64,000 nt of DNA from Salinivirgaceae bacterium (GTDB lineage: Bacteria > Bacteroidota > Bacteroidia > Bacteroidales > SZUA-534): positions 7,816-71,815 of the forward strand of contig JAGCNL010000053.1 in assembly GCA_017645945.1 (NCBI GenBank), read 5' to 3'. Both the position numbers and the translations under genes were made by a program. Below the pieces are notes generated by a model. The model searched no databases, was not told the DNA's origin, and worked only from the letters and a program-made list of their open reading frames with translations. Positions 2,754 through 58,462 of the stretch are shown here, in pieces; position 1 is the stretch's first letter, and every line of letters starts with the position of its first letter.

Positions 2754-2763
2754 TGTTTTGAAT

Positions 2764-2910
2764 GTTTAGAGTTTAGGGGGAAGTGTTTAGAGTTTAGATA
2801 GTTGCAGCGCTGCGGTAGAGACGTAGCGCGCTACGTCTGTACAGTTTGCATTCGTTCGTAATTCGCAATTCATAATTCAAAAATCTCAACCCTTACCTCT
2901 TACCCCTTAC
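2764..2910. repeat. heptad-periodic word array in the hisG-hisD spacer (21 heptad slots in one register), with two GC palindromes in the middle
   Basis: Split from 2764: gtttaga gtttagg gggaagt gtttaga gtttaga ... ttcgtaa ttcgcaa ttcataa ttcaaaa atctcaa cccttac ctcttac cccttac. The left and right word blocks share the same 7-nt register (2855-2764=91=13x7). Embedded palindromes: GCAGCGCTGC (2804-2813) and AGACGTAGCGCGCTACGTCT (2819-2838). Confidence 0.8.
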
Positions 2911-2912
2911 CG

Positions 2913-3764
2913 TTAATAAATCATTTTCTCAATCGGCATTACCAGAATGCCTTCAGCGCCAAGGTTTTTCAGTTTGCCGATGATTTCCCAGAAGTGTTTC
3001 TCCTCAATCACCGAAGCCATTGACGACCAGCCGTCGGTCTCCAGTTTGGTGATGGTGGGGGCCTTCATACCAGGCAGCAGTTCGCTTGCGGCGGCAATCT
3101 TGTCGTTCGGGATGTTCAGCACGATGTATTTCTTGCCTTCGGCGTTCTTGTACGAGTCGAAGCGGAACAGCAGTTCGTTCAGAATCTCGCGCTTGTCGGC
3201 TGCAAGTTTCTTGTTTCCAATCAGAACGGCTTCCGATTTCATCACCACTTCAACCTCTTTCAGGTTGTTGCTCACCAGCGTGCTTCCCGAGCTTACAATG
3301 TCGAAAATGCTGTCGGCCAAGCCGATACCAGGTGCTATCTCAACTGAACCTGTAATCACATGGATTTCGGCCTTGATTCCGTTCTTGTCGAGGAAACGCT
3401 TCAGGATTCCCGGATACGAAGTGGCAATCTTCTTGCCGTTGAACCACTCAAGTCCCTTGTAGTCAATCTCTTTAGGGATGGCCAGCGACAGACGGCACTT
3501 GCTGAAGTCCAAGCGCTTGATAATCTCCGCGTCTTCCTGACGCTCTTCATACTCGTTCTCGCCAACAATGCCCACGTCGGCAATGCCGCTAGCCACGGCC
3601 TGCGGAATATCGTCGTCGCGCAGATAAAGAATCTCAACGGGGAAGTTCTTTGCGGGCACCAGCAGGGTGCGCTTTCCCGATTCCACCTTAATGCTCGACT
3701 CCGCAAGCATTGTCATTGTCTCGTCAAACAATCGGCCTTTGGCCTGTACTGCAATTCTTAACAT
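2913..3764 (-). CDS. hisG: ATP phosphoribosyltransferase
   Basis: The track ORF (2913..4169) is over-extended. The recognisable HisG sequence starts at MLRIAVQAKGRLFDETMTML (ATG at 3762-3764), giving 283 aa. The upstream part of the ORF covers the his leader region. Confidence 0.9.
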   Translation of the reverse strand: MLRIAVQAKGRLFDETMTMLAESSIKVESGKRTLLVPAKNFPVEILYLRDDDIPQAVASGIADVGIVGENEYEERQEDAEIIKRLDFSKCRLSLAIPKEIDYKGLEWFNGKKIATSYPGILKRFLDKNGIKAEIHVITGSVEIAPGIGLADSIFDIVSSGSTLVSNNLKEVEVVMKSEAVLIGNKKLAADKREILNELLFRFDSYKNAEGKKYIVLNIPNDKIAAASELLPGMKAPTITKLETDGWSSMASVIEEKHFWEIIGKLKNLGAEGILVMPIEKMIY

Positions 3765-3789
3765 ATTTTTATTCGTTTTAATAATTCCT

Positions 3790-3822
3790 AAACAAGAAAG
3801 GCTCGCATTGCTGCAAGCCTTT
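3790..3822 (-). terminator. his attenuator terminator hairpin
   Basis: Minus strand AAAGGCTTGC-AGCAAT-GCGAGCCTTT is a 10-bp stem including one G-U pair, followed by CTTGTTT. Located between the His-codon leader ORF and the hisG start. Confidence 0.6.
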
Positions 3823-3858
3823 GTATCATTTACATAGAACCAACCAGTCAATGCTCTG

Positions 3859-7380: not shown

Positions 7381-7486
7381 AAAAAACGGCTCCGATGGGG
7401 AGTCGGGAGCCGTTTCTGATTGTTGCGGACGGGGAGTCCGCGTAAGCAACTAAAAACTATTATGAAGAAACATGTCTTTATCAGAC
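7381..7486 (-). ncRNA. candidate small RNA, copy 1 (two CUCCCC loops; paralog at 54268-54378)
   Basis: On the minus strand it is preceded by TACATTTG. It contains hairpin GCGGAC-UCCCC-GUCCGC (7425-7441) and terminator AACGGCUCC(C)GA-CUCCCCA-UCGGAGCCGUU plus U6 (7381-7414). About 80% identical by eye to the second copy. The boundaries are inferred. Confidence 0.6.
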
Positions 7487-7490
7487 GATG

Positions 7491-7498
7491 CAAATGTA
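7491..7498 (-). promoter_or_regulatory. -7 box TACATTTG of sRNA copy 1
   Basis: Minus-strand TACATTTG matches TAnnTTTG and is conserved in copy 2. Confidence 0.55.
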
Positions 7499-7520
7499 GG
7501 TGAGCAAATCGTTCGTGCTG

Positions 7521-7557
7521 GTTAAGAACAGGTTAAAAAGAGTTAATGAAAAGTTAA
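7521..7557 (-). promoter_or_regulatory. four phased TTAAC boxes upstream of sRNA copy 1 (candidate response-regulator site)
   Basis: GTTAA on the plus strand at 7521, 7532, 7542 and 7553 (spacing 11, 10, 11). Same arrangement and spacing in copy 2. Confidence 0.5.
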
Positions 7558-7679
7558 ACAGTCAGGAGTGTGCTGCGGAATGGTGGTTTTCTCCGCCAGT
7601 TCCGAAAGGTCGGCATACACATATTTTTAAGCAAAAAACGTAAAAAGCCGCAACGGTAGGAAAACTGCCCCATAATTGC

Positions 7680-11362: not shown

Positions 11363-11505
11363 TTAGGATTTAGGATTTAGGAATTAGGAGGTAGGATTTA
11401 GGGGGATTGAATTACGAATTATGAATTACGACTACGGTCTGTTGTCTGAAGTCCGAAGTCCAAAAATCCGATTCACCGATTCAACAAAGGAATAAACGAT
11501 TAAAC
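11363..11505. repeat. heptad-periodic word array (icd-citrate synthase spacer)
   Basis: Starts immediately after the icd stop: ttaggat ttaggat ttaggaa ttaggag gtaggat ttagggg gattgaa ttacgaa ttatgaa ttacgac tacggtc tgttgtc tgaagtc cgaagtc. These 14 heptads are in register (11363-11460). Then ccgattca ccgattca and A-rich aaac words. Confidence 0.85.
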
Positions 11506-11516
11506 AAGAAAAAGTA

Positions 11517-12956: not shown

Positions 12957-13647
12957 ATTTAGGTAAACTGATTGAAGCGGCTGACAATCAGGGGAGTATT
13001 TAATTCAGGAAATGGTGCCAGCATTAGCAACGATGCGTTAAGCGATTCAATTCTGTTGATTGTAATCATACAATGCAGCTGTCAATTCATTTTTCAGCTG
13101 AAATGTAGAATTTTCTTTGTGTGCCATAAATGCATGAGCCATTGGTCAGAATGCGGCGCGTAAATCGTCTGAGATTTTGATTTTTCGCATACATCAAGAC
13201 CATTGTACGATTCAGGCGCAAAATTCGAGGATTTCGGTGATTTGTGTGAGAAACGTATTTCCATAGAATTATCGTGCTCAATATGCGCCAGAATTCAATA
13301 TTTGCGAATTGTTCCGGTAATCTGTCCAGATATTTGATTCTTAGCGCGTTTTTTTGAATTTTTTCAGAGTTTTTTTGCTGGTGGGGAGTATTTTCATATA
13401 TCCTATTTAACATAATATAAATTATCAGACAAACATAATAATCCGAAAATTACCACGGAATTCATGAAAAACACGGAAATTTCATAATTACCACGGAACG
13501 CACGGAAAACACGGAAATTTTAAATTGTGGCTAACCGATTCTTGCTGATTTATGCCGAGATTACTGTTCAACCCAATCGGCGGTTTTGAGATTTTCAATG
13601 CGCGAAAAATATACTCAATTAGCGAACCGGCGCAAAAGATTAACGGC

Positions 13648-13676
13648 AAAAAAAAAGAGCTGCCAAGTGACAGCTC
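13648..13676 (-). terminator. intrinsic terminator after the 13720-14292 gene
   Basis: Minus strand GAGCTG-tcacttgg-CAGCTC followed by T9. Confidence 0.65.
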
Positions 13677-13719
13677 ATAAAAACAGAATATGTTTTTTAT
13701 ATAGTTGGTTTGGTTGGTT

Positions 13720-14292
13720 TTAGTCTTTTCGTCCGCCCCAATCAATCGAAACGCCGAAAGCGATTGACTGATAGTTGGTTATCTCGGTTTCCCTGTTGTG
13801 TACACGTTTGTCCTGCAATAGATTGTAGCCGCACCACATGTTGAAGTGAGCCAGACGGATTCCAACAGCCGGCAGCGCGTACAGGCCGTTGACATCGCCC
13901 ACAGCATAACCCAGTTTCAGGTCGGCAAACGGAGCGTATTTGCCCATCGGCATTTCGTATCTTGCATTGAAGAAGAACGGCATTGCAAAGTCGAAATCAT
14001 CGTTGCTGTAGCACTCATAGGTATTTGAGTTATCGTCGTAAGTATTGTAATAGAAGTCATCGTTGTTGGTCACAAACTGCATTGAGGCGCCCATGCCCAA
14101 GTACAGATTGTTCGATTGTATGCCGTGAACGGTTGTGATTGCAAACCGGTCGTACGGATGAGAACTTATGCCGGAGAAGATGTTCATGCCGGCAAAACCG
14201 CGGTAACCCTCGGTTGGTGCTGCAGTAAAATCGCCTGCAAACAAGCTCAGGCTCATTGAAACTGCGAAGATTGATAACATTAACTTTTTCAT
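13720..14292 (-). CDS. small outer-membrane beta-barrel protein (porin-family-like)
   Basis: 190 aa ORF with signal peptide MKKLMLSIFAVSMSLSLFA. Alternating aromatic/Gly-rich strands. C-terminal portion IAFGVSIDWGGRKD. Function inferred from composition only. Confidence 0.5.
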   Translation of the reverse strand: MKKLMLSIFAVSMSLSLFAGDFTAAPTEGYRGFAGMNIFSGISSHPYDRFAITTVHGIQSNNLYLGMGASMQFVTNNDDFYYNTYDDNSNTYECYSNDDFDFAMPFFFNARYEMPMGKYAPFADLKLGYAVGDVNGLYALPAVGIRLAHFNMWCGYNLLQDKRVHNRETEITNYQSIAFGVSIDWGGRKD

Positions 14293-14455
14293 AATTGCAC
14301 TTTTTATTTGTTTTTCATAATTGAACTGTCTTTTGGGGCAGTTCGTAAATAAGACAATTTTGTGGGCATCTACCCTACCTCTTTCGTTGTTTTTTTTGCG
14401 GCCAATCGGTTTTTCTGTTTGTGAAACCGATGGTCGGATTTGTTGTAACCAATTG

Positions 14456-14487
14456 AAAAAGAGACCGCTCGAAAACTCGGCGGTCTC
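14456..14487 (-). terminator. intrinsic terminator after the 14524-16530 gene
   Basis: Minus strand GAGACCGC-cgagttttcga-GCGGTCTC followed by TTTTT. Confidence 0.65.
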
Positions 14488-14523
14488 ATAAATGCGAATG
14501 ACGCATTTTAATGTGAAAACAAG

Positions 14524-16530
14524 TTATAATCCTAATTTGAACACCACAATGTCAGAATCGTTATAGGTGGCACTCACCCACACTGCGTTGTCGGCGGCAG
14601 CTGCCAGACCGTTGAACGACACTGTTTTCGAGCCATCGAAAGTCTTTGTGAAGACCACCTTGCCGCTGGCGTCAATCTTTACCAGAACCATGGCGTTGCC
14701 GAAGGTGCCGCCGCTCACAACCGAGCCGTCGGGCAGAATGCGGCTCTCTTTGAAGGCGCCGTCTGTCGGAAGGTCGAACTGAGCCTCCCAGAGCTTCTTG
14801 CCGGCTGCGTCGAAGGCCACAGCATAACCTTTCGACTCCTTGGTGCCTGTATAGACGGTTTTGCCGTTCTGTATGGCTGCCGATGAGAGTTTGCATCCGT
14901 CGAGCATGTTATCCCATTTGATGTAGCCCAGCTCGTCGATTTGAGCCACCCAGCTGTCGTTGAAGGCCATGCTGCACACGTTGCCTGTGACGTCGAGCGC
15001 AAGCGATGTAACCTTCTTGCCTGGTGCGTAGGTGCGAGTCCAGAGTTTGCGGCCCTGTGCGTTGAGCTTGGTGATGAGCGGTGTTGGCAGTGCGGTGTCG
15101 CCCTCCTGCACGTAGCCGCCAAGCAGCGATTTGCCATCAGCGTAAACCACCATCGAAAGAACCTCGTTGCCCTCAAATTTGGCGTTGATTTCGTTCTTGC
15201 CCTGCGGATTCATCTTGAAGAACCACGACTGGCCGGGAACGGTGTTTTTGATGGCGTTGGTGAGACCTGCGGCGTAGAGAGAGCCTGCATTGTCGATGTA
15301 GGCAGTGCTTACGCGGTCGTCGAAATCGTTGCCTAAGATGTCGTTTTTCTGCATTTTACCTTCGGCGTCGAGCTTAATCATCCAAACATCGTCCATGTCG
15401 TCGTTGAGCGATGGTGTGTTGGCGATGACCATCAGCGAGCCGTCGGCAAATGTGGCAATTGAGCCGCCAAAGTCGCGTGCAGCCTTGTTGTCGAAGCCGC
15501 GGATGACCTTGTAGTTCTCCATCGGCAGGTCGGCAGCGATTGACTGTCCGAGAGCAGCCGATTTCAGGTTGAAGATGTCAACAAACATCTCACCCTCAGG
15601 ATATTGCGACACAAACTTGTTGTAAGCCTCGATGCTGTTGACTGATTTTGCCCAGTCGAAGAGCAGCTGGCGTTTCAGCAGTTTGGCCTCGGGCATCTTG
15701 GGCGAGTTCGGATATTGCTCCATAAACTGCTCAATGGCGTCGAGAGTGTGCTTCTGTGCGGCCTCGTCGAATGCCAGAATGCCTAATTTCTTCTTGGCCT
15801 CCTCATACTGCACGGCATCAGGATAGTTGTCCACAAACTGCTTGTAGGCGGCGAACGTGTTGGCTTCAACTGTCTGCTTGTAAGCCAGTGCGTTACGCTC
15901 CTCTTTGGCGATTATTGTCTGTGCTGCGTCGGGATATTTGTTCAGGAAATAGTTGAACGCATCAACCGTGCCGGCATTCTCAGCCTTGCGGAACTCAATG
16001 TAGTTGCGGATATGCACCACATTGTTGTAGTATTTCGAGTCGGGGAACTCCTCGAGGAATTTTTCGGCATATTGCAGATTGTTCTCCTCGCGGACAAACT
16101 TTATCAGCTTCTCCTCCACCAAGTTACGCTCGATTTCCATGTTCTTGTCGATTGGCTTTCCGCGACGCTCGAGCTTCTGTGCCATGAAATATGTGTCGAG
16201 TACTTTCTTGTCGTCGGCTGTGAAAGTTGACACGCCTGCGTCGGCTTTCTTGAAGTGGTGCCAGCCGCGGAAATAGTCTTTCTGCGAGTAAGCGTCGTAC
16301 GAGAGCACGATGGCCATACCAAGGTTTGCCATGGCGTTGCTGGCGTCTTTGGCCAACACTTTCTCAAGCGTGGCGCGGGCTTTGTTCATATTTTCATCAA
16401 CGGCAGGCTGACGGTCTTTGGCCTTCACTCCGGCAACAATGTCCTCGAAAGCCTTTTCGGGCTTTTGCGCCATGGTCGGCAGCACCATTGCCACCGACAT
16501 CAGAAATGCGAATATAATATGCTTGTTCAT
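14524..16530 (-). CDS. secreted protein with N-terminal helical repeats and a C-terminal beta-propeller-like region
   Basis: 668 aa ORF with a signal peptide. Recurrent F(L/V/M)xxYP(D/N/E) helical repeat (FLNKYPDA, FVDNYPDA, FMEQYPNS, FVSQYPEG). The C-terminal half has repeated G(K/R)xLW motifs. Confidence 0.5.
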   Translation of the reverse strand: MNKHIIFAFLMSVAMVLPTMAQKPEKAFEDIVAGVKAKDRQPAVDENMNKARATLEKVLAKDASNAMANLGMAIVLSYDAYSQKDYFRGWHHFKKADAGVSTFTADDKKVLDTYFMAQKLERRGKPIDKNMEIERNLVEEKLIKFVREENNLQYAEKFLEEFPDSKYYNNVVHIRNYIEFRKAENAGTVDAFNYFLNKYPDAAQTIIAKEERNALAYKQTVEANTFAAYKQFVDNYPDAVQYEEAKKKLGILAFDEAAQKHTLDAIEQFMEQYPNSPKMPEAKLLKRQLLFDWAKSVNSIEAYNKFVSQYPEGEMFVDIFNLKSAALGQSIAADLPMENYKVIRGFDNKAARDFGGSIATFADGSLMVIANTPSLNDDMDDVWMIKLDAEGKMQKNDILGNDFDDRVSTAYIDNAGSLYAAGLTNAIKNTVPGQSWFFKMNPQGKNEINAKFEGNEVLSMVVYADGKSLLGGYVQEGDTALPTPLITKLNAQGRKLWTRTYAPGKKVTSLALDVTGNVCSMAFNDSWVAQIDELGYIKWDNMLDGCKLSSAAIQNGKTVYTGTKESKGYAVAFDAAGKKLWEAQFDLPTDGAFKESRILPDGSVVSGGTFGNAMVLVKIDASGKVVFTKTFDGSKTVSFNGLAAAADNAVWVSATYNDSDIVVFKLGL

Positions 16531-16541
16531 AACTATTTAGA

Positions 16542-17936
16542 TTACTTCTTTAAAACAAAAAATTCAACTCGGCGATTGTTGCTCTTGCCTTGGTCGGTCA
16601 GGTTGGTGTCGATTGGGCGGGTTTTGCCGTAGCCTTTTGCTTGCAGCATGTTGGGGCTTATCCCCTTCGATACCAAATAGTTGACAACGGCTTGTGCGCG
16701 TGCTTGACTCAGTTTCAGGTTCAGCTCGTCGGAGCCAACATTGTCAGTGTGACCGCTGATTTCAATCTGACTTACAGTGCCTTCGGCCAGGAATGCGGCA
16801 ATCTTGTCGAGCTCGGCATTCGACTGTGGCAGCAGCGTGCTCTTGCCAGTCTCGAAGAAGATGTTGTTCAGAATAAGCGCAGAGCCTTCCTCAATGTTGC
16901 GGAGGCCGTCAGTGAAGGGGTCTTCGGGGATTTCAGGCTGAACGAAAACAACCTTGCCGCTGTTGTGGCAGTTGTTCTTGTCGGAAACGGTGTAGGTGTA
17001 GGTTCCGGCCGGCAGATTGGTCAGCTTCTGCCCTGTCGCGCCATTCGACCATTTGATGCTGTATGGCGGTGTTCCGCCCGATATGCCCAGGCTGATGACG
17101 CCGTCGTCGATGATGCGCTGGATTTTGCCGGTCACAGGGTCGAGACCGCCAGTGTAGGCAGAGTCAACAATCACTGTTTCAAGACCTTTCGGCACGCAGG
17201 CGCACACCTCGCAGGTGGTCAGCGGACGAATCTCAAAATCGTCGAAGAAATAGTATGCGTATTTCTTGCCTTTCTTGTTCTGCACGTCCTTGCCGGTCAC
17301 CACGTAGTTGGTGTTCTCGTAGTTCTTGAAGTTGCCCACGGTGAAGAACATCTCGTTGCCCGATGCGGTGTAGAGCATGCAGTAGTGCTTCCACTCGTCG
17401 GTGTTGTCGAGGAACAGGCCCGACTCGTTGTTAAGCTGGCCGTTGTAGTTCAGGAAAGTGGTGTTGCCGTTGGCGATTTTCTCCTGCGAGAAGTATATGC
17501 TCAACTGGTCGACAGCGAACATTGAGCCGTTGGCCAGCTTGTACCAGAACGAAACGCAGTAAACCTCTCCCGCTTTCATCGGGCTTTTGAGCTCGCCCTG
17601 AATGTACTCGCGGTAGTCGCGGTCAGAGCCGGTCAGAATGGCGCCCATGTAGCCTTTTCCGCTGTGCGGCTGGCTGTAGCCGGCAAAGTTGTCGGGCACT
17701 TTCACGTCGCCCGTGCTGCATTTGTTGAAATAGTCGGGCGTGGTGAACGACGGGTATGTCCAGTGCGGTATCAGCCTGTGCGACTGGTCGTTGTAGATGT
17801 AGGTTTCAGGGCACTTCTCATACTGTTCGAAACTCGGGTTGTAAACCATATTGGTCTCATCTTCAACTTCTTGTGCCATAAGAAGTGCCGGACAGGCGCA
17901 CAAGATTCCGAGTAAATTGACAAATTTTTTGTTCAT
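16542..17936 (-). CDS. OmpA-family (OmpA/MotB C-terminal domain) protein with a SprB-like repeat
   Basis: C-terminus SGHTDNVGSDELNLKLSQARAQAVVNYLVSKG...NRRVEFFV is a classic OmpA_C peptidoglycan-binding domain. GGTPPYSIKWSNG resembles a SprB repeat. The probable start is MNKKFVNLLG (ATG 17934-17936), not the track start at 17963. Confidence 0.8.
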   Translation of the reverse strand: MNKKFVNLLGILCACPALLMAQEVEDETNMVYNPSFEQYEKCPETYIYNDQSHRLIPHWTYPSFTTPDYFNKCSTGDVKVPDNFAGYSQPHSGKGYMGAILTGSDRDYREYIQGELKSPMKAGEVYCVSFWYKLANGSMFAVDQLSIYFSQEKIANGNTTFLNYNGQLNNESGLFLDNTDEWKHYCMLYTASGNEMFFTVGNFKNYENTNYVVTGKDVQNKKGKKYAYYFFDDFEIRPLTTCEVCACVPKGLETVIVDSAYTGGLDPVTGKIQRIIDDGVISLGISGGTPPYSIKWSNGATGQKLTNLPAGTYTYTVSDKNNCHNSGKVVFVQPEIPEDPFTDGLRNIEEGSALILNNIFFETGKSTLLPQSNAELDKIAAFLAEGTVSQIEISGHTDNVGSDELNLKLSQARAQAVVNYLVSKGISPNMLQAKGYGKTRPIDTNLTDQGKSNNRRVEFFVLKK

Positions 17937-18065
17937 CGGTTTTTCTCTTTTATTTCGATTCAAAAATGTTCATTTCAATTCAAAAAAGTGGGGTTAAGAT
18001 ACGCAAAAAAACTATTGTGTGCTTCGCTCCCGTCCCATAAAAACTAACAATTTTGGAACAGTCAG

Positions 18066-18311
18066 TTAAAGCATTGCTTCAAGTGCGGCAACGGCAGAGG
18101 CTATGTCAGAAGAAAATGTGGAGTGCGAAAGAAGGAAATCTGTGCGGCCGTTGGCAAGCTGCGCATAAAGCTTGCTGTTCATGCTTTCCACATACGAGGC
18201 AATGGCATATTCTATCTCCTCCTTCTGCTGCGGGCTGTTGGAATACTGATAAACACGCCACTTCTGATGGAAGAAACAATAGGCCGATTCGATGCTGTGT
18301 GGGGAAAACAT
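18066..18311 (-). CDS. hypothetical small protein (81 aa)
   Basis: The track ORF starts at 18347, but its first 12 codons are read out of the heptad array. The probable start is MFSPHSIESAY (ATG 18309-18311). No family recognised. Confidence 0.45.
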   Translation of the reverse strand: MFSPHSIESAYCFFHQKWRVYQYSNSPQQKEEIEYAIASYVESMNSKLYAQLANGRTDFLLSHSTFSSDIASAVAALEAML

Positions 18312-18320
18312 TGTGAAGGC

Positions 18321-18530
18321 AGAATTTAGAATTAAGGCATTAGGCACTGGGCATTAGGCAATAGGTGTTTGGTATTGGGTGTTGGGTGTTGGGGAATTAC
18401 GAATTATGAATTACGAATTACGAATTACGAATTATTGCTTTTTTTGTCTGTTGTCTGTTGTCCGTAGTCTTAAGTCCTAAGTCTCAAGTCTTAAATCCTA
18501 AATCCTAAATCCTAAATATTAAATATTAAA
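18321..18530. repeat. heptad-periodic word array, 30 consecutive heptads in one register
   Basis: Verified base by base: agaattt agaatta aggcatt aggcact gggcatt aggcaat aggtgtt tggtatt gggtgtt gggtgtt ggggaat tacgaat tatgaat tacgaat tacgaat tacgaat tattgct ttttttg tctgttg tctgttg tccgtag tcttaag tcctaag tctcaag tcttaaa tcctaaa tcctaaa tcctaaa tattaaa tattaaa. The array fills the whole spacer and overlaps the stop codon of the 18526-18711 gene. Confidence 0.9.
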
Positions 18531-18711
18531 TAAACCTTTTGTGCTCTTCGGAGTATTGGAAACCTTCGGCGGCGAGGCGTTGCTCAAGCTCGTTGCGGTT
18601 GATGTTGAAATGGAAGCAAATCTCGTCGAGCGTGTCGAATTCCTCATCGCGCAGCAGGAAATTGATGGCCGACACAAGCATTGGTGTGTCGTTTAATGGC
18701 AAATGGTCCAT
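18526..18711 (-). CDS. small conserved protein, DUF4250-like
   Basis: 61 aa ORF, MDHLPLNDTPMLVSAINFLLRDEEFDTLDEICFHFNINRNELEQRLAAEGFQY. It resembles the short DUF4250 family as I remember it. Not verified. Confidence 0.5.
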   Translation of the reverse strand: MDHLPLNDTPMLVSAINFLLRDEEFDTLDEICFHFNINRNELEQRLAAEGFQYSEEHKRFI

Positions 18712-18816
18712 ATTGTTGATTTTTCGCGCAAAAGTAGCCTTTTTCTTGTTGTGTAGGCAAACAAAAACTGCCGAACAAAATGCCCGGCAGTTTCCTACAA
18801 ATGTATCACTTTAAAA

Positions 18817-19419
18817 CTATTTCTTCTGATTTGCCTCATATTCAGCGTTCAAGCCTTCAATGATGTCGTTTGTGATGTTGTACTTCTCGTTGGCGTACCA
18901 CATGCTGCCGCCGATGGTGCGTGTCAGCACGAATTTGTAGCGCTCCGGAGTGTTGTACTTGGTTACGTAAGCTGAAATCTTCTCGAACAGCTGGTTGTTC
19001 ATGTTCTGCTGCTCAACAGCCAACTGCTGCGAGTACTCGTCCTGAAGGCGCTGGAACTCCTGCTGGCGGACAAGCAGACGCTGCTGCTCTTCTTCGGCGC
19101 GCTGAGTGGTCAGGAAGATGCCCTTCTGAACCTTGTCCTGGAAAGTCTCGATGTCTTTTTGAAGTGCTTTTGCATCGCGCTCAAGCTTGCTCTGCATATT
19201 GGCGTACTTCTTCATGATGGCATCGTTCAGCTCAATCGAGAGTTTGTAGTTAACAAGGATTGAATCGACGTCGATAAATGCGATGTCGCACGCTCCGACA
19301 GCTGTCGAATCGTTGGCCGCAACGGCAGCCGGTGCCTGTGTCTGGTTTGCACAACTTGTTGAAAGGAAGCCCATTGCAACTACTGCAATTGCACAGGCAA
19401 AAATTGAATTAGTCTTCAT
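18817..19419 (-). CDS. OmpH/Skp-like periplasmic chaperone lipoprotein
   Basis: Probable start MKTNSIFACAIAVVAMGFLSTSC (lipobox). Q/E/K-rich coiled-coil body typical of the OmpH family. Confidence 0.6.
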   Translation of the reverse strand: MKTNSIFACAIAVVAMGFLSTSCANQTQAPAAVAANDSTAVGACDIAFIDVDSILVNYKLSIELNDAIMKKYANMQSKLERDAKALQKDIETFQDKVQKGIFLTTQRAEEEQQRLLVRQQEFQRLQDEYSQQLAVEQQNMNNQLFEKISAYVTKYNTPERYKFVLTRTIGGSMWYANEKYNITNDIIEGLNAEYEANQKK

Positions 19420-19505
19420 ATAAATCTGTTTTATTACTTTATTTTTTTGTTGCGCCAAATGTATTACAATTAGCGGGATTTAGCAGTTTTTGTCAATCTT
19501 TTTTT

Positions 19506-19584
19506 GGTGAATCGGTGAATCGTTTAATGTTTAACGGGTTTAACCACTTAATTCTGAATTCTGATTTCTAAATTCTGAATTTTC
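19506..19584. repeat. word array (two 8-mers, then nine heptads in register)
   Basis: ggtgaatc ggtgaatc, then gtttaat gtttaac gggttta accactt aattctg aattctg atttcta aattctg aattttc. The array ends at the cstA stop codon. Confidence 0.8.
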
Positions 19585-21000
19585 CTACTTCTTCTTGGTT
19601 ATATACCGAATGGCGATGAACGACAGCACAACTGTGAACACAAGGCCGATTGAGTAGCCCCACACGGGTGGCAGCGAGAATCCTTCGGGCGCCAATAATA
19701 TATATGTGCTGCAAACCGATGTCATAAAGATGGCAGGAATGAGCGTTATGATATAACGACGTCCGTGGCGGTACAGATAGGCTGTAATAGCCCACAGAGT
19801 GAAGATTGACAACGTTTGGTTGAACCATCCGAAGTAGCGCCAAAGCACGGCAAAATCGATGAGCATAAGCACTGCTGAAATGGCAAAAATTGGCACCGAA
19901 ACCGCCAGACGTTTTGGTATGGTGTTCTGCGGAAAATGCAGAAAATCAGCAGTTATCAGTCGTGCAGAGCGCAGAGCGGTGTCGCCCGATGTGATTGGCG
20001 CGGCCACAACACCCAGAATGGCCAGAATGGCACCAATGCGGCCCATCCAGTCGTTGCAGATGAAGTTGACAATGTTAGCCGGATTGCCGTTCATTTTGAG
20101 TGCAAGTCCTTCCGATGTACCGCCAGCGTATTTGATTGCGGCGGCAGCCCAAATCAAAGCCACAAAACCTTCTGTAATCATTGCGCCATAGAAGGCGATG
20201 CGGCCATAGCGCTCGTTTTTCAGGCATCGGGCCATCATCGGGCTTTGCGTGGCGTGGAATCCGCTGATTGCACCGCAGGCAATGGTTATGAACAGGAATG
20301 GGAAGATACTCAATCCTTTAGGATGATGAGTATGGAATGCTTCAGTTATCTCAGGCATCGAACCGCTGTGGGTGAAAATGCCAATGAACACGCCTGCCGC
20401 CATAATGAGCAGCGCCAGTCCGAACACGGGATAAATCTTGCCGATGAGCGTATCGATAGGCAGCAGAGTTGCCATCATATAATAGCAGAAGATGATGACG
20501 CACCAGAAGGTCTTGCTGCCGATGAAACCCGCTGTCGGTGTCAGTCCTTCGAGCAGACCTGCAGGCGTGGTTACAAACACGGCACCCACCATTACCATCA
20601 GCAAAAGCGAGAACACGCGCATAACCTGACGCACACCCAAGCCCAGCTCATCGCCCACAATCTCGGGCAGCGACGCGCCGTCTTTGCGCAGCGAAATCAT
20701 TCCCGACATAAAATCGTGAACCGCGCCGCCGAAAATGCAGCCCAGCACAATCCACAAGTAAGCCGCAGGGCCAAACAAAATGCCGCCGATGGCACCGAAG
20801 ATTGGTCCCGTGCCGGCGATATTCAAAAACTGAATCAGAAACACTTTCCAAAGCGGCATCGGAATGTAATCGACACCGTCCTGACGAGTGTAAGCTGGTG
20901 TCTGGCGGTTGGCATCAACCCCTAACACCTTCTCAACAAATGCACCATAGAATAAATAGCCCAAAATAAGGGCAAGAACTGAAACAATGAATGTTATCAT
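19585..21000 (-). CDS. cstA: carbon starvation protein A family transporter
   Basis: 471 aa polytopic membrane protein. The N-terminal region through FLNIAGTGPIFGAIGGILFGP is typical of CstA. Confidence 0.85.
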   Translation of the reverse strand: MITFIVSVLALILGYLFYGAFVEKVLGVDANRQTPAYTRQDGVDYIPMPLWKVFLIQFLNIAGTGPIFGAIGGILFGPAAYLWIVLGCIFGGAVHDFMSGMISLRKDGASLPEIVGDELGLGVRQVMRVFSLLLMVMVGAVFVTTPAGLLEGLTPTAGFIGSKTFWCVIIFCYYMMATLLPIDTLIGKIYPVFGLALLIMAAGVFIGIFTHSGSMPEITEAFHTHHPKGLSIFPFLFITIACGAISGFHATQSPMMARCLKNERYGRIAFYGAMITEGFVALIWAAAAIKYAGGTSEGLALKMNGNPANIVNFICNDWMGRIGAILAILGVVAAPITSGDTALRSARLITADFLHFPQNTIPKRLAVSVPIFAISAVLMLIDFAVLWRYFGWFNQTLSIFTLWAITAYLYRHGRRYIITLIPAIFMTSVCSTYILLAPEGFSLPPVWGYSIGLVFTVVLSFIAIRYITKKK

Positions 21001-21039
21001 AATTGTATTTTTTAATCGATGTGCGAAGGTATATAATTT

Positions 21040-21262
21040 GGTGAATAGGTGAATTGATTTTTTTGCTTGGATGGACTGCAGACTATAGACAACCGACTGT
21101 AGACAACAGACAACAGACTGCAGACAAAGCTAATGCCCAACCCCCAACACCTAACACCCAACACCTATTGCCTAATGCCTTAATTCTGAATTCTAACTTC
21201 TAAATTCTGAATTCAGATTTCTAACTCCTAACTCCTAACTCCTAACTCCTAAATCTACCTAA
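21040..21262. repeat. heptad-periodic word array, at least 26 heptads in one register (21074-21255)
   Basis: ggtgaata ggtgaatt, then gactgca gactata gacaacc gactgta gacaaca gacaaca gactgca gacaaag ctaatgc ccaaccc ccaacac ctaacac ccaacac ctattgc ctaatgc cttaatt ctgaatt ctaactt ctaaatt ctgaatt cagattt ctaactc x4 ctaaatc. The words are reverse complements of those at 18321-18530. Confidence 0.9.
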
Positions 21263-21274
21263 CACCCCTCCGTG

Positions 21275-22930: not shown

Positions 22931-23101
22931 ATCTGCTTTGTTTTTAGTTTTTAGCTTTTAAAAATAGGAAAAATTTTAATCGAGAGTAGGTTTCCGCGTA
23001 AATATTTGCGAAAGTCACGTACAAATTCCGTCTTTGAAACGCACCTGGTCCATGTCTCATAATAGGTTGATAACTTATTCTATTGACTATCGATTTTTAG
23101 A

Positions 23102-23109
23102 TAATTTTG
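23102..23109 (+). promoter_or_regulatory. candidate -7 box (TAATTTTG)
   Basis: Matches TAnnTTTG, 23 nt upstream of the ATG at 23132. Confidence 0.4.
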
Positions 23110-23131
23110 GGGCATTAAATAAAACGAATCT

Positions 23132-24541: not shown

Positions 24542-24619
24542 TGTGAAGTCCCGATAGCTATCGGGATGAAGGATTGAAGTGATTTAAACCGAGAGTAATA
24601 ACCTTAAATACTTGAAATT

Positions 24620-24781
24620 ATGATTTTTAAGATTTTTATCGTAGCATTTATTTTTGCTTGCGGCCTGTATTATCTGGTATGTTTTCTTGAGATGTTCGGT
24701 ATTATCAAATTCACTCCGGAGAATCAAGAAGTCTCATTCCCCAAGATGCTGATACCCTTTTACTATTTCTTTAAGAAATGA
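24620..24781 (+). CDS. possible small membrane protein (53 aa)
   Basis: Below the track length cutoff. MIFKIFIVAFIFACGLYYLVCFLEMFGIIKFTPENQEVSFPKMLIPFYYFFKK has one hydrophobic helix. AT-rich and unverified. Confidence 0.3.
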   Translation: MIFKIFIVAFIFACGLYYLVCFLEMFGIIKFTPENQEVSFPKMLIPFYYFFKK

Positions 24782-24809
24782 TTGTTAATAACCTATAAAT
24801 CTTTTAGTT

Positions 24810-25991: not shown

Positions 25992-26062
25992 CTTGAACTT
26001 TATGTATGAAACGACAAGGATTCCGGTTGGAATCCTTTCGTTTTGATATAGAACCAAGAAAA

Positions 26063-29339: not shown

Positions 29340-29344
29340 TGATA

Positions 29345-29442
29345 GTAGGATTTAGAAGTTAGGATTTATGAGTTGGAAGTTAGTAATTAGTAGTAATCTG
29401 CGATTAAATCTTAATTCCTACATCCTAAATCCTAAATATCTT
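29345..29442. repeat. heptad-periodic word array whose two halves are reverse complements
   Basis: gtaggat ttagaag ttaggat ttatgag ttggaag ttagtaa ttagtag taatctg cgattaa atcttaa ttcctac atcctaa atcctaa atatctt. All 14 heptads are in one register. TTAGGAT on the left and ATCCTAA on the right are reverse complements. Confidence 0.85.
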
Positions 29443-35876: not shown

Positions 35877-35995
35877 GTGTTAGGCACTAGGCATTAGGCA
35901 TTAGAAAATTACGAATTATGAATTACGAATTACGATTAACCAATTCACCGATTATCCAAAATTCTGTAGTCTGTTGTCCATAGTCTGAAGTCCCC
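35877..35995. repeat. heptad-periodic word array (17 heptads in register)
   Basis: gtgttag gcactag gcattag gcattag aaaatta cgaatta tgaatta cgaatta cgattaa ccaattc accgatt atccaaa attctgt agtctgt tgtccat agtctga agtcccc. Starts directly after the ABC-F stop (agTTAG). Confidence 0.85.
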
Positions 35996-36015
35996 AAAAG
36001 CGATTCATCAAAAAA

Positions 36016-40884: not shown

Positions 40885-40975
40885 ATTCAGAATTTAGAAT
40901 GTAGAATTCAGAATAAAAATAGAATTTTAACATGATCAACTTGAAATCCAACCAATCCCCAAATACCTATTGCCT
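40885..40975. repeat. heptad-periodic word array in a divergent intergenic region
   Basis: attcaga atttaga atgtaga attcaga ataaaaa tagaatt ttaacat gatcaac ttgaaat ccaacca atcccca aatacct attgcct. The vocabulary overlaps with 21179-21220 and 21130-21178. Confidence 0.7.
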
Positions 40976-41029
40976 AAAGCCCGTCATCAAACTTTTCTCT
41001 TGTCAAATCCGTTTGTTTTGTTTTAGTTC

Positions 41030-54167: not shown

Positions 54168-54194
54168 TCGTTCCTGCTCCACTTTCCGCGTGGT

Positions 54195-54231
54195 TTAACG
54201 TTTCGTTAACTCTTTTTAACAGCGCCTTAAC
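54195..54231 (+). promoter_or_regulatory. four phased TTAAC boxes between divergent promoters (candidate response-regulator site)
   Basis: TTAAC at 54195, 54206, 54216 and 54227 (spacing 11, 10, 11). Same as at 7521-7557. Confidence 0.5.
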
Positions 54232-54253
54232 CAGCGCGAGCCGTTTGCCAACA

Positions 54254-54261
54254 TACATTTG
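54254..54261 (+). promoter_or_regulatory. -7 box TACATTTG of sRNA copy 2
   Basis: Identical octamer to copy 1. The flanking TTTGC-N5-TACATTTGCA is conserved. Confidence 0.55.
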
Positions 54262-54267
54262 CAACGT

Positions 54268-54378
54268 CTGATTAGGACAATATTTTCTTCATAATAGGTT
54301 TTTAGTTGCTATGCGGACTCCCCGTCCGCCAAAATCAGAAACGGCTTCCGACTCCCCATCGGTGGCCGTTTCACTTTT
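54268..54378 (+). ncRNA. candidate small RNA, copy 2 (paralog of 7381-7486)
   Basis: Contains GCGGAC-UCCCC-GUCCGC (54312-54328) and a terminator-like hairpin AACGGCUUCCGA-CUCCCCA-UCGGUGGCCGUU (54340-54370), followed by UCACUUUU. The boundaries are inferred. Confidence 0.55.
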
Positions 54379-56778: not shown

Positions 56779-56788
56779 TACTAAAGCG

Positions 56789-56959
56789 ATGGCAGATAAC
56801 TATTTAGAACGGCATTACGAGGAGTATGAAGCCAAAAAGGCTGCTTGGGAGAAGGCGAAAAAACTTGGCAAATACAGGTCGAAACGGGCTGTAAGTGCGC
56901 CACAACAACCTTCGGGCACTGCTTCTAAGAGCGCTGACGGTTCAAGCCAACAGAATTAA
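56789..56959 (+). CDS. possible small protein (56 aa)
   Basis: Below the track cutoff. MADNYLERHYEEYEAKKAAWEKAKKLGKYRSKRAV... The N-terminal DNYLE motif recalls short conserved Bacteroides peptides. Unverified. Confidence 0.4.
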   Translation: MADNYLERHYEEYEAKKAAWEKAKKLGKYRSKRAVSAPQQPSGTASKSADGSSQQN

Positions 56960-56996
56960 ACTTTTGCTTTAAATAACATTTTTAAAACCATAATAA

Positions 56997-58271
56997 ATGA
57001 ATAACTTAGGTCTGAAGATTCGGCTTATTGCAATGAACCTGATGATATACGCCGTTTGGGGCGCGTATCTGAGTTCGCTCGGTATCTATTTAGGCAATAT
57101 CGGTATGGGCACAAGCATTGGCGCCTTTTTCGCCGTGCAGGGCATTGTGTCGCTCTTTATGCCAGCACTGATGGGCATTGTGGCCGACAAATGGATTCCT
57201 GCGCAACGGTTGCTTGGTATGTGCCAGGGACTGGCCGCAATCTTTATGGCTTTGGCCGGACTGATGGGAATGCGTTACGGCGCTGATGTCACTTTTGCTC
57301 AGATATTTCCGTTCTATGCCGCCAGCGTTGCGTTCTTCATGCCGACAGTTGCACTGGGTATCTCGGTGTCGTACAATGCGTTGGAGCGCGGCGGACTCGA
57401 CACCATGAGCGCCTACCCGCCCATTCGTGTTTTCGGTACCATCGGTTTCATTGTGTCGATGTGGATTGTGGATTTGACTGATTTCAAGTCGGATTACCGT
57501 CAGTTGTTCATTTCTGCGGCATGGTCGCTTGTGCTGGCCGTGTACGCTTTCACGCTGCCAAATTGCCCCACAAGTGGCGGCAAACGCTCAGCGTCGATAG
57601 TTGAAGCGCTCGGGCTGCGGGCGTTCACGCTCTTCGGCAACCGCCAGATGCGGCAGTTCTTCATCTTCTCGTTTATGCTTGGAATGTGCCTTCAGGTGAC
57701 GTTCGGTTTTGCGGGCACTTTTATGAGCGACTTCGGCCAAAATCCCGACTATGCGGACGCCTTCGCAGTTCGTCACAACATAATGTTGAGCTCGCTCTCG
57801 CAGGTTTCCGAAACGCTTTGCATTCTTCTTATTCCTTTCTTTTTGAAGCGGTTAGGTATTAAGAAGGTGATGCTTATTTCGATGCTGGCGTGGGTTTGCC
57901 GCTTCGGATTCTTCGGTTTGGGTGACCCCGAAGGCGGCGTTTGGCTTTTCGTCCTTTCGATGATTGTTTACGGTGTTGCGTTCGACTTTTTCAACATCAG
58001 CGGCTCGCTGTTTGTGGACCAAAACACCACGGATGACATCCGATCAAGCGCGCAGGGCGTGTTCATGATGATGACCAATGGTCTCGGTGCAACGGTTGGC
58101 TCGCTGCTTTCGCAAATGGTGGTTAACAAATTCGTTTACAACCGATTGGGCGAACCATCGTTCGATATGATGCAAGGCTGGGCAATGGCTTGGTACGTCT
58201 TTGCCGCTTTCGCATTGGTGATGGCCATTGCGTTTGCTATCATCTTCAAATACAAACACGTAAGGAGTTAG
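56997..58271 (+). CDS. nupG: nucleoside:H+ symporter (NupG/XapB family MFS transporter)
   Basis: 424 aa, 12-TM-like protein. The N-terminus LKIRLIAMNLMIYAVWGAYLSSLGIYL is typical of the NupG family. Confidence 0.75.
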   Translation: MNNLGLKIRLIAMNLMIYAVWGAYLSSLGIYLGNIGMGTSIGAFFAVQGIVSLFMPALMGIVADKWIPAQRLLGMCQGLAAIFMALAGLMGMRYGADVTFAQIFPFYAASVAFFMPTVALGISVSYNALERGGLDTMSAYPPIRVFGTIGFIVSMWIVDLTDFKSDYRQLFISAAWSLVLAVYAFTLPNCPTSGGKRSASIVEALGLRAFTLFGNRQMRQFFIFSFMLGMCLQVTFGFAGTFMSDFGQNPDYADAFAVRHNIMLSSLSQVSETLCILLIPFFLKRLGIKKVMLISMLAWVCRFGFFGLGDPEGGVWLFVLSMIVYGVAFDFFNISGSLFVDQNTTDDIRSSAQGVFMMMTNGLGATVGSLLSQMVVNKFVYNRLGEPSFDMMQGWAMAWYVFAAFALVMAIAFAIIFKYKHVRS

Positions 58272-58462
58272 GATTTAGGAGTTAGAAATTGAGGAAGTGG
58301 TAAGGCATAAGTAATTGGATGGTTTTGAATTAAACTTGTTATCCCGATAGCTATCGGGGCCGTAAAACTTTAAACGAAACGATAAACTTCTAAACTGCGA
58401 AGTGACTAAACTTAAACTTTAAATACTAAACTCTAAACATCTCAACACTAAACGTTTAAAAT
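58267..58462. repeat. word array with a central 16-nt palindrome (two heptad blocks in different registers)
   Basis: The left block incorporates the nupG stop: gttagga tttagga gttagaa attgagg aagtggt aaggcat aagtaat. Centre: CCCGATAGCTATCGGG (58343-58358). Right block: gactaaa cttaaac tttaaat actaaac tctaaac atctcaa cactaaa cgtttaa, running into the next ATG. Confidence 0.8.

Follow-up and report, generated by a model that had tools for sequence, protein, structure and literature searches.

In Calothrix PCC 7601, the STRR sequences comprise several distinct intergenic tandem heptamers per genome and have no known role; neither a multi-word grammar with a fixed order nor transcription-coupled polarity is known to have been reported for STRR. 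The BIMEs/REP of Escherichia coli and the pneumococcal BOX elements (A-Bn-C) consist of mainly palindromic modules of 30 to 60 nt in transcribed intergenic regions, and among contingency loci a parallel is found in Haemophilus, where 7-bp repeats precede hmw1A. Prokaryotic long simple sequence repeats (LSSRs) with heptanucleotide units were described by Mrazek et al. (2007, as cited in PMC4679880 and PMC4692102), the examples given there being GGGAATC in Xanthomonas and GGGGAYT in Nostoc; heptanucleotides of Calothrix are also cited in PMC4692102. Heptamer repeats of the TAACTGA type occur in Beggiatoaceae, Cyanobacteria, and some Bacteroidetes (MacGregor 2015, PMC4679880), and the same paper mentions “larger assemblages of heptamer repeats” in the intergenic DNA of Gramella, Aequorivita, and Elizabethkingia, whose close relatives have short repeat-free spacers. 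Finally, BrickBuilt, a MITE of Porphyromonas gingivalis, is built from one 23-nt unit, has a leader and a tail with small inverted-repeat ends, and shows promoter activity (PMC4596501).

The window (the whole 64,000-nt stretch analyzed here) belongs to a clade of rumen Bacteroidales MAGs that carry the NCBI label “Salinivirgaceae bacterium.” As with STRR, several distinct intergenic heptamers are found in one genome, but the source is a rumen Bacteroidales MAG and the vocabulary is unlike the STRR consensus words of (heterocystous) cyanobacteria, which places the arrays outside STRR. With BIME/REP and BOX, they share the ordered mosaics of short modules, recurrent hairpins, transcription-related orientation, and variable module number, but the window elements are mostly tandem heptads for whose RNA no structure is predicted. 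They resemble the LSSRs, as these are summarized in the two citing papers, in being intergenic 7-nt tandem arrays far above chance, with some inverted pairs, with widely variable length and sequence between the same gene pairs of related species, and with no known function for either; the differences are that the window arrays are ordered multi-word compounds, with modules common to loci and species and with non-G-quadruplex words. TAACTGA repeats are likewise direct intergenic heptamers, lying near the start codon of the downstream gene and sharing its orientation, but they have one dominant word, which is outside the window vocabulary, and neither module order nor higher-order dispersal of modules is described for them (PMC4679880). 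BrickBuilt is also found in Bacteroidales and is strictly intergenic, multicopy, noncoding, and modular, with a variable repeat number (PMC4596501), whereas in the window elements many heptad blocks are strung together, inverted ends were not detected, and promoter motifs are mostly missing.

Period 7 is the sole strong periodicity of the window. In 42-nt sliding windows compared at lags of 1 to 15, self-identity of at least 0.75 was reached by 137 windows at lag 7, by 21 windows at lag 14, and by none at any other of these lags. The 7.0 kb of intergenic DNA contain 341 adjacent heptads with at most one mismatch versus 16.5 ± 6.7 in shuffles, an approximately 20-fold excess that bears out, within the window, the intergenic enrichment expected from the original prediction. 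The density of heptad matches is 49.8/kb in intergenic DNA versus 1.7/kb, which is the chance level, in coding DNA (~30-fold). Tandem Repeats Finder reported about 35 period-7 rows in the window, nearly all of them intergenic (the three exceptions, at 19964, 42308, and 57460, are short and have two copies each), with a longest perfect run of 4.6 units. Neighboring heptads are 1 to 3 substitutions apart and stay in register, with lag-7 identity of at least 0.70 unbroken over 18335 to 18543 and 21129 to 21270, just as had been predicted. Tandem 7-nt units above chance, mostly intergenic and changing in length by whole units between relatives, agree with the LSSR class. CRISPR arrays have identical 24- to 48-nt repeats and unique spacers of similar length; here, the units are 7 nt, contiguous, and spacerless. 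The individual sites are as follows, with modules denoted by letters and seven spacers marked as strong arrays.

1421 to 1466, minus strand: spacer downstream of hisD, weak member; 9-nt GTTAAACCC and TTAAAC words (H) ahead of a 149-aa ORF.
2754 to 2912, minus strand: hisG/hisD spacer, strong; in gene direction, GGTAAGG three times (I), GAATTAT/GAATTGC/GAATTAC (C), palindrome GTAGAGACGTAGCGCGCTACGTCT (2811 to 2838), CTAAACT words (H).
11363 to 11516, plus strand: icd/gltA spacer, strong; TTAGGAT six times (A), GAATTAC three times (C), GTCTGTT (D), GAAGTCC (E), CGATTCAC twice (F), A-rich leader, ATG.
18312 to 18525, reading on the plus strand: longest array, strong, and the one that runs opposite to its genes, which are on the minus strand; GAATTTA (G), TTAGGCA (A'), GGTGTTG (B), GAATTAC six times (C), GTCTGTT (D), AAGTCTT (E), AAATCCT three times (reverse complement of A), AATATTA.
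19420 to 19584, minus strand: cstA/ompH spacer, strong; in gene direction, CAGAATT words (G), GTTAAACCC (H), GATTCACC twice (F), A-run, and a Bacteroidetes -7-like TACATTTG about 36 nt upstream of the ompH start.
21001 to 21274, minus strand: LRR/cstA spacer, strong; in gene direction, GAGTTAG five times (A), CAGAATT (G), TTAGGCA (A'), GGTGTTG (B), GTCTGTT/GTCTGCA seven times (D), ATTCACC twice (F), leader.
24549 to 24567, no strand assigned: palindrome TCCCGATAGCTATCGGGA, the hairpin module that is also present at 58341 to 58358, in a nonheptadic spacer.
29340 to 29441, minus strand: 166-aa gene/glycosyltransferase (GT) spacer, strong; TTAGGAT three times, then the complement-type words CTAACTT and AAATCCT.
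30564 to 30569, minus strand: empty site between genes for 195 and 198 aa; the stop codon adjoins the ATG (TAAATG).
35877 to 36015, plus strand: ABC-F/RNA-ligase spacer, strong; TTAGGCA four times (A'), GAATTAC four times (C), ATTCACC-like (F), GTCTGTA-GTCTGTT-GTCCATA-GTCTGAA-GTCC (D/E), GCGATTCATCAAAAAA, ATG.
40885 to 40982, plus strand: divergent spacer, partial member; words of the ATTCAGA/ATTTAGA type (G), followed by reverse-complemented B and A' words (CCAATCCCCAAATACCTATTGCCTAAAGCC).
58272 to 58462, plus strand: nucleoside symporter/ROK kinase spacer; GATTTAGGAGTTAG (A), GGTAAGG-like (I), palindrome TCCCGATAGCTATCGGGG (58341 to 58358), then CTAAAC, TTAAAC, and GCGAAGTGACTAAAC words (H, J).

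Where at least nine array spacers had been claimed, 7 to 8 are robust, 40885 to 40980 is partial, and 58272 to 58462 is mainly nonheptadic, with 6- to 9-nt TTAAAC-type words, a palindrome, and only 3 tandem pairs. As for the two weaker examples, 1421 to 1466 is an array of a 9-mer (GTTAAACCC), and 24541 to 24619 has a hairpin but no heptad signal.

The word vocabulary is indeed common to the arrays in both orientations and is also present in outgroups at 57 to 75% protein identity. Each element is a chain of short degenerate 7-nt tandem blocks; some units of 8, 9, and 24 nt also occur, as do GC palindromes, and a single array can combine as many as seven or eight distinct word blocks. The predicted word order is real as well: in a set of 12 independent elements that represent 6 genomes, with module definitions and gene calls that were partly manual, 81 module pairs were concordant and 11 discordant (permutation mean, 46 ± 5.6; P < 5e-5). 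The preferred order is TTAGGAK, CAGAATT, TTAGGCA/TTGGGTG, GAATTAY, GTCTGTT, GAAGTCC, TTAAAC/CAGCGAAGCGACTAAAC, GATTCACC, A-run, and ATG, and the opposite polarity noted for the array at 18321 to 18530 was confirmed.

Beyond single words, entire series of variants recur. GAATTAC-GAATTAT-GAATTAC is found at 11409, 18394, and 35907 and, reverse-complemented, in the related genome L328; GTCTGTA-GTCTGTT-GTCCGTA-GTCTGAA-GTCC is found at 18447, 35963, and 11437 of the window, at 9850 of L324, and at 15850 of L007; and GGCATTAGGCAATAGGTGTT is found at 18350 and, reverse-complemented, at 21179 and 40982. Positions 21136 to 21194 are homologous to 18321 to 18393, inverted, and the spacer at 1421 to 1466 matches 19522 to 19544 with 91% identity over 23 nt. 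Such internal series, repeated at different loci and in different species, together with the fixed order of the word blocks, argue that the arrays are dispersed copies of one element family and not independent products of slippage. No description of an ordered family of heptad modules was found in the literature, and Rfam searches of the window yielded only 3 tRNAs at gathering thresholds and nothing at an E value of ≤1 within 18000 to 21400. The suggestion that the repeats do not belong to a described family holds to that extent: the ordered modular form appears to be undescribed, but intergenic heptanucleotide arrays as a class have long been known (LSSR, STRR, and TAACTGA).

Comparison with related genomes supplies both filled and empty sites. 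The 195-aa and 198-aa genes abut directly (0 nt) in the window, as they do in outgroups L328 and L330; in L006, L324, and L326, a composite of 237 to 258 nt in the canonical order is inserted exactly between the stop codon and the next ATG. At this one site, the empty AATAAATAG followed by ATG corresponds to AATAAGTAG, element, and ATG, with no target-site duplication; no terminal inverted repeats were found at this one clean insertion, just a 4-nt GGTG/CACC complementarity. The icd/gltA spacer is 12 nt long in outgroups L011 and L012 and 122 to 198 nt long, with different words, in L005 to L010. At the 166-aa/GT site, the outgroups have 25 to 34 nt and no array, L326 has the window type, and L006 and L324 carry a second, unrelated “allele” (GGGTGTG, a GC hairpin, and CAACACC). 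The L005 ortholog of the array at 18312 to 18525 comprises 109 nt of other words, and the nucleoside symporter/ROK kinase junction of outgroup L330 contains AAATCCT five times. At orthologous sites, the words themselves are not kept; the same junctions are repeatedly occupied, and housekeeping operons show presence/absence polymorphism. These comparisons show that modules and entire composites have evidently been copied into, or replaced at, gene junctions. The elements resemble MITEs in being small (100 to 270 nt), noncoding (no long open frame), intergenic, and multicopy (at least 9 copies in 64 kb); a MITE with terminal inverted repeats is ruled against by the ends, which are TTAGGnn words on the left and GATTCACC plus the A-run on the right.

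Between L324 and L326, genes are mostly 94 to 97% identical (range, 84 to 98%) and nonarray spacers are 92.5 to 97% identical, versus 80, 69, and 52% for array spacers, which shows a much quicker turnover of internal array sequence than of genes or promoter-bearing spacers. Among the orthologous spacers of L007, L008, and L009, indels of 14, 7, 8, and 23 nt show that blocks gain and lose whole units, a sign of slippage or unequal recombination. Pure in situ replication slippage, with each array independent, a lineage-specific 7-nt bias, and the shared words convergent, is an improbable account. It agrees with the unit-multiple indels among close relatives, with the 1 to 3 substitutions between in-register neighbors, with heptamer arrays of other words at other Bacteroidota loci, with the 51 to 56 stretches that each of three arbitrary control heptamers matches in IMG/VR, and with the polymerase-slippage hypothesis of Mrazek, as cited in PMC4679880 and PMC4692102. 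However, identical 20- to 45-nt series of differing heptads at separate loci and species, the significant common module order, and the ordered composite of ~240 nt at a 0-nt junction largely refute it. The original suggestion of neutral slippage products is therefore tenable for one component of the process, as the indels illustrate, and fails as the whole of it, given the shared series and the composite whose site is vacant in outgroups.

Metagenome-assembled repeats are difficult to assemble, and an assembly or chimera artefact from low-complexity DNA was a concern for this window. Its probability is negligible: four contigs, assembled independently from four samples and named in two assembly styles, carry the arrays without a single base difference, and MAGs of several other species from other studies carry homologous arrays at the same junctions. 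The same identity among four independent assemblies of one species bears on contingency loci, or “tuning knobs,” in which hypermutable repeat numbers would switch or grade downstream expression. The arrays do lie upstream of the start of the next gene and differ in length between species, but their perfect runs are short, none exceeding 4.6 units, and the flanking genes are not surface or contingency genes but housekeeping ones (his, icd, gltA, ompH, cstA, and ROK kinase), so that phase-variable contingency repeats are ruled against and the idea is very hard to credit.

The elements are oriented and compositionally polarized with respect to transcription. Ten of 11 read canonically forward along the gene direction, and in 12 of 13 co-directional array spacers the G-C skew of the first third exceeds that of the last third (Wilcoxon P = 5e-4), as at 2754 to 2912 (+0.30 and -0.30); the DNA is C-poor past the stop codon and G-poor ahead of the start codon. 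In the first 42 nt past the stop codon, 2.72 of the 3 reading frames are closed, compared to 2.17 in shuffles, whereas sense-strand stops over the whole arrays show no enrichment (109 observed versus ~103 expected). The predicted stops in all three frames are thus seen as a slight excess next to the stop codon and not array-wide, and it is this local closure that lends a little weight to a frame-independent insulator role. The Bacteroidetes -7 motif TAnnTTTG is missing from 6 of 8 array spacers, and no terminator-like site was found in the seven array spacers within positions 1 to 40000, which rules against intrinsic terminator or promoter regions. Predicted folding energies on both strands equal those of shuffles in the array spacers other than 29340 to 29441, being indicative of neither structured nor unusually unstructured RNA.

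On balance, we favor the view that the arrays represent a clade-specific, modular, slippage-prone family of noncoding intergenic elements that would spread by copy-and-paste and be filtered by mRNA constraints. Because no terminator-like sites were found and six of eight spacers lack the -7 motif, the elements are probably co-transcribed inside operons (among their neighbors are hisG/hisD, icd/gltA, cstA, ompH, and the genes for the ABC-F protein and ROK kinase). Only orientations and compositions compatible with the mRNA would survive: words poor in C and rich in stops next to the upstream stop codon, and words poor in G and rich in A/C, plus an A-run, ahead of the start codon, which in Bacteroidetes is Shine-Dalgarno independent. 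The elements would act mainly by parting cistrons that once abutted and by providing a new leader, with no sequence-specific signal. Candidate routes of copying include ectopic recombination or gene conversion, template switching, and some transposase.

The orientation bias, long-lived vocabulary, and repeated junction occupancy could instead reflect a positive function. One such possibility, which we consider less likely than the favored view, is a functional cis-acting RNA, in which word blocks would serve as platforms for single-strand RNA-binding proteins such as ribosomal protein S1 and cold-shock-domain proteins (~7 nt each), or as ribosome standby/insulator segments that set downstream translation without Shine-Dalgarno pairing. 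In its favor are the transcription-tied orientation and polarized composition, a grammar kept across species and outgroups, the conserved last ~20 nt ahead of the ATG at icd/gltA (CGATTAAACAAnAAnAAA), the right end GATTCAC(C)ATCAAAAAA repeated at nonorthologous sites, the slightly elevated frame closure, and the binding of S1, Csp, or CsrA proposed for TAACTGA repeats (PMC4679880). It is opposed by the differing words at orthologous sites, by the presence or absence of arrays among relatives in housekeeping operons, by the array spacers being the fastest-evolving DNA of their loci, and by the shuffle-like folding energies and lack of an overall stop-codon excess. More speculatively still, and in our opinion unlikely, the heptad blocks might be the “letters” of a transcription-oriented mobile cassette that inserts precisely between stop and start in a family of rumen Bacteroidales by a copy-and-paste route new to bacteria, its words being read by single-strand RNA-binding proteins that set downstream translation or stability in this lineage, which does not depend on Shine-Dalgarno pairing. 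If this were so, bacterial heptamer repeats, unexplained since 1990, would gain a mechanism and a function.

Imperfect palindromes of ~20 to 40 nt, as in REP/BIME, are also present, although they form a minor fraction of the elements. A significant hairpin (z = -3.6) is predicted in just one array spacer, that at 29340 to 29441. Three palindromes recur: GTAGAGACG..CGTCTCTAC at 2811 to 2838 of the window and at the 166-aa/GT site of L006 and L324, GGACGCGATnnATCGCGTCC at icd/gltA of L007 to L009 and at position 4531 of L324, and TCCCGATAGCTATCGGGA at 24549 and 58341 of the window.

In the window, Tandem Repeats Finder reported approximately 35 period-7 rows, nearly all of them in the gaps between ORFs. 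When a 42-nt window was slid along the sequence, 137 windows had a self-identity of 0.75 or more at lag 7 and 21 at lag 14, and none had it at any other lag from 1 to 15. On a gene map drawn from ORFs, Pfam matches, and the genes called on identical public contigs, the 7.0 kb of intergenic DNA contains 341 adjacent heptads with no more than one mismatch, versus 16.5 ± 6.7 in shuffled sequences; this corresponds to 49.8 per kb, whereas coding DNA stays at the chance level, 1.7 per kb. The intergenic excess is small at periods 8 and 9 and nil at period 6. For the 64 kb of the source MAG covered here, autocorrelation and shuffle controls thus bear out the predicted period-7 arrays in spacers, which are as follows.

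Heptad arrays in the window (window positions)
2754-2912, strong array, hisG/hisD spacer
11363-11516, strong array, icd/gltA spacer
18312-18525, strong array
19420-19584, strong array, cstA/ompH spacer
21001-21274, strong array
29340-29441, strong array
35877-36015, strong array
40885-40980, partial array
58272-58462, family member by vocabulary, mostly 6-9 nt words
1421-1466, family member by vocabulary, mostly 6-9 nt words

The original prediction of at least nine array spacers stands for the seven strong arrays and the partial one, with the last two assigned by vocabulary, but the adjacent-heptad count in the window detected no heptad signal at 24541-24619. The genes beside the arrays are ordinary housekeeping genes. 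Because the arrays are base-for-base the same in four contigs of independent metagenome assemblies, they are real, and an assembly or chimera artefact is ruled out.

The words listed in the original prediction are likewise real and recur on both strands. They were coded as the following modules.

Modules of the array vocabulary
A, TTAGGAK
G, CAGAATT
A', TTAGGCA
B, TTGGGTG
C, GAATTAY
D, GTCTGTT
E, GAAGTCC
H, TTAAAC-type words
J, a 24-nt unit containing CAGCGAAGCGACTAAAC
F, GATTCACC
I, GGTAAGG

The predicted sharing of word order was confirmed: in 12 independent elements, drawn from the window and from five relatives, 81 module pairs are concordant and 11 discordant, compared with 46 ± 5.6 concordant pairs after permutation of the order within elements, and none of 20,000 permutations reached 81. 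Specific series of heptads are shared as well. GAATTAC-GAATTAT-GAATTAC is identical at window positions 11409, 18394, and 35907 and is found, reverse-complemented, in the outgroup contig L328; the five-heptad series GTCTGTA-GTCTGTT-GTCCGTA-GTCTGAA-GTCC aligns among window positions 18447, 35963, and 11437 and two contigs of relatives (L324, position 9850, and L007, position 15850); and the junction GGCATTAGGCAATAGGTGTT is common to 18350 and the reverse complements at 21179 and 40982. Independent slippage cannot generate one and the same succession of unlike heptads at separate loci; the arrays are therefore dispersed copies of common modules. Slippage, one of the origins suggested earlier, accounts for unit changes between relatives but not, by itself, for identical multiheptad series at separate loci.

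Module J, a tandem unit TTCTCACCAGCGAAGCGACTAAAC in 2 to 4 copies, is found at 9880-9975 of L326, at the same site in L324 and L006, at 11330-11390 of L005, and in L334; its 24-nt length means that the family is not purely heptadic. Two GC-rich palindromes, GTAGAGACG..CGTCTCTAC and GGACGCGATnnATCGCGTCC, recur at nonorthologous junctions of different species (window 2811-2838; the 166aa/glycosyltransferase site of L006 and L324; icd/gltA of L007 to L009; and L324 4531-4550). They are REP-like, lack a T-tract, and usually lie between the G-rich and C-rich halves of the spacer.

The icd protein matches rumen MAGs of sheep, buffalo, and yak, labeled “Salinivirgaceae bacterium” or Bacteroidales; additional relatives were gathered through homologues of a 198-aa protein. 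DNA identity to the window is approximately 90% for contigs L005 to L009, 82% for L010, and approximately 80% for the outgroups L011 and L012. The icd/gltA spacer is 12 nt long in these two outgroups and 122 to 198 nt throughout the closer clade, where its word content varies between species with flanking genes approximately 90% identical and only the last ~20 nt before the ATG are conserved. The 12-nt ancestral-type spacer AAAACACCGATA holds CACCGAT, which is also the core of the F repeat lying ahead of gltA in clade members with arrays; it may be the seed of the F block or a coincidence. At the 195-aa/198-aa junction, the stop codon abuts the ATG in the window (TAAATG) and in outgroups L328 and L330 (TAGATG), and L006, L324, and L326 carry a composite of 237 to 258 nt exactly between TAG and ATG. 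It runs from TTAGGTG/TTAGGCA through a GAATTAT-like block, GTCTGTA..GAAGTCC, TTAAACC, and two to four J units to CGATTCACCGATTCACCATCAAAAAAA; in the L326 copy, repeated TTAGGCA-type words take the place of the GTCTGTA..GAAGTCC block. The composite is a derived insertion of an ordered element; MITE hallmarks were absent at this single clean insertion. At the 166aa/glycosyltransferase junction, two unrelated contents alternate among close species, and the outgroup spacers are array-free and 25 to 34 nt long.

The elements thus change by unit slippage, with indels of 14, 7, 8, and 23 nt in the icd/gltA array among L007, L008, and L009; gene junctions gain copies of them or have one content replaced by another; and their divergence outpaces that of the surrounding DNA. 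In the comparison of L324 with L326, most genes are 94 to 97% identical (range, 84 to 98%) and three nonarray spacers 92.5 to 97%, with 80, 69, and 52% for array spacers. The family itself is older than the close clade, as the outgroups carry arrays of the same words at other junctions, including symporter/ROK, which is also occupied in the window. Gene order is strongly rearranged between L005 and the window (for example, 13647-18753 is inverted and 23052-28164 relocated), with shared genes approximately 90% identical; this may reflect MAG misassembly. An inverted array pair (18321-18393 and 21136-21194) flanks the DUF4250-ompH-cstA segment, and inverted array copies could mediate rearrangements.

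The canonical module order follows gene direction in 10 of the 11 elements with known flanking genes, the sole exception being 18312-18525, whose opposite polarity had been predicted. In gene direction, G falls from 27% in the first third of array spacers to 9% in the last third, and C rises from 6% to 24%; nonarray spacers display the same trend, only weaker. In a wider set of 13 spacers, 12 have a lower G-C skew in the last third than in the first (p = 5e-4). This G-rich-to-C-rich polarity survives inversion of the element, so the inverted copy at 18312 obeys it as well. The G-poor, A-rich sequence before start codons fits the Shine-Dalgarno-independent initiation of Bacteroidetes. The Bacteroidetes -7 promoter motif TAnnTTTG, present in most nonarray spacers, is missing from 6 of 8 array spacers, and no hairpin with a T-tract resembling a terminator occurs in the 7 array spacers within 1-40000, which points to a location of the arrays inside transcription units. 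Strict confinement to codirectional junctions holds in the window, but crude ORF calls in the wider set give some “divergent” or “convergent” cases, for most of which missed small genes are the explanation; the arrays are predominantly, not exclusively, codirectional. We infer that the elements would be cotranscribed filler, of which only mRNA-compatible orientation and composition are tolerated.

A sequence-specific RNA function would be an interesting alternative to cotranscribed filler. As for RNA structure, minimum-free-energy folds pair 5' words with 3' words, but the z-scores for either strand, taken against dinucleotide, mononucleotide, and four-segment shuffles, stay between -1.7 and +1.3 and reject structure as the organizing principle and equally rule out unusually unstructured arrays; only 29340-29441, with an inverted TTAGGAT/ATCCTAA pair, departs from shuffles. 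The suggestion that the arrays act as frame-independent translational insulators gains a modest excess of stops in the first 42 nt after the stop codon (4.7 versus 3.85 expected, closing 2.72 frames versus 2.17) but no excess over whole arrays on the sense strand (109 versus ~103 expected); they are not clearly stop-codon insulators. The arrays are not contingency loci, given the lack of variation in four assemblies, perfect runs of at most 4.6 units, and the housekeeping neighbors. No strain-level copy-number variation was seen, the divergence of L003 lying outside the arrays, which makes that locus uninformative. Phage carriage was also rejected, as module J occurs in a true family element in a single short IMG/VR contig, L334 (4.4 kb, three copies preceding an ATG), and the remaining IMG/VR matches to J and F are unrelated to the family.

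The arrays had not been recognized as a described repeat family. They are not of the CRISPR type, have no Rfam match even at relaxed thresholds, and our literature search found no description of an ordered, multiword heptad element family; however, bacterial heptanucleotide repeats are a known class, and the arrays fall within it. Such repeats are over-represented in many bacterial genomes, with no established role, and at a given gene pair they differ from one close relative to the next (PMC4692102). TAACTGA repeats are found ahead of start codons, and “larger assemblages of heptamer repeats” occur in some Bacteroidetes and are missing in relatives (PMC4679880). The BrickBuilt MITE of P. gingivalis consists of a leader, 23-nt tandem repeats, and a tail (PMC4596501). 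Other Bacteroidota loci found through icd carry heptad arrays with different words. Three consecutive GAATTAY units were found in >120 metagenome and >119 IMG/VR stretches with GC contents of 29 to 67%, but two arbitrary control heptamers matched in composition gave 51 and 56 IMG/VR stretches (TTAGGAK, 52), so heptamer arrays are common, no single word is special, and GAATTAC is not a universal one. The clade vocabulary was not found around the foreign GAATTAY arrays (L085-L204 and L205-L323). These are usually embedded in other morphing heptad arrays; a reverse-complement array (ATAATTC/GTAATTC) follows in ~15 of 139 cases, and TAACTGA-type and CAACAGT-type heptads adjoin some of them.

Within this class, the arrays represent a modular variant that is new: a family of ordered mosaic elements specific to the clade. 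Intergenic heptanucleotide arrays have been reported for decades from cyanobacteria, xanthomonads, sulfur bacteria, and some Bacteroidetes, and this clade is unusually tractable for questions of their origin and function: it offers many elements per genome, ordered shared modules that make homology traceable, junctions cleanly filled in one close relative and empty in another, indels of unit length, and transcription-linked compositional polarity, which make the question “slippage noise or functional RNA?” testable. For annotation, the elements stretch operon junctions from 0-12 nt to 100-270 nt, probably abolishing translational coupling, and are hotspots of divergence.

The window also contains two other intergenic repeats. 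A nonheptadic repeat of 171 nt, with inverted, 84% identical copies at 7392-7559 and 54193-54362, carries the GC hairpins GCGGACTCCCCGTCCGC and CCGACTCCCCATCGG. Each copy precedes a gene (aconitase at 7825 and a histidine kinase ending at 54066), with the same relative orientation in both cases, and the repeat may be a small RNA or a regulatory region that the two loci share. A 38-nt tandem repeat at 13448-13520 (1.9 copies, 88% match), in the spacer near 13414-13719, has CACGGAA-type subunits unrelated to the heptad vocabulary.
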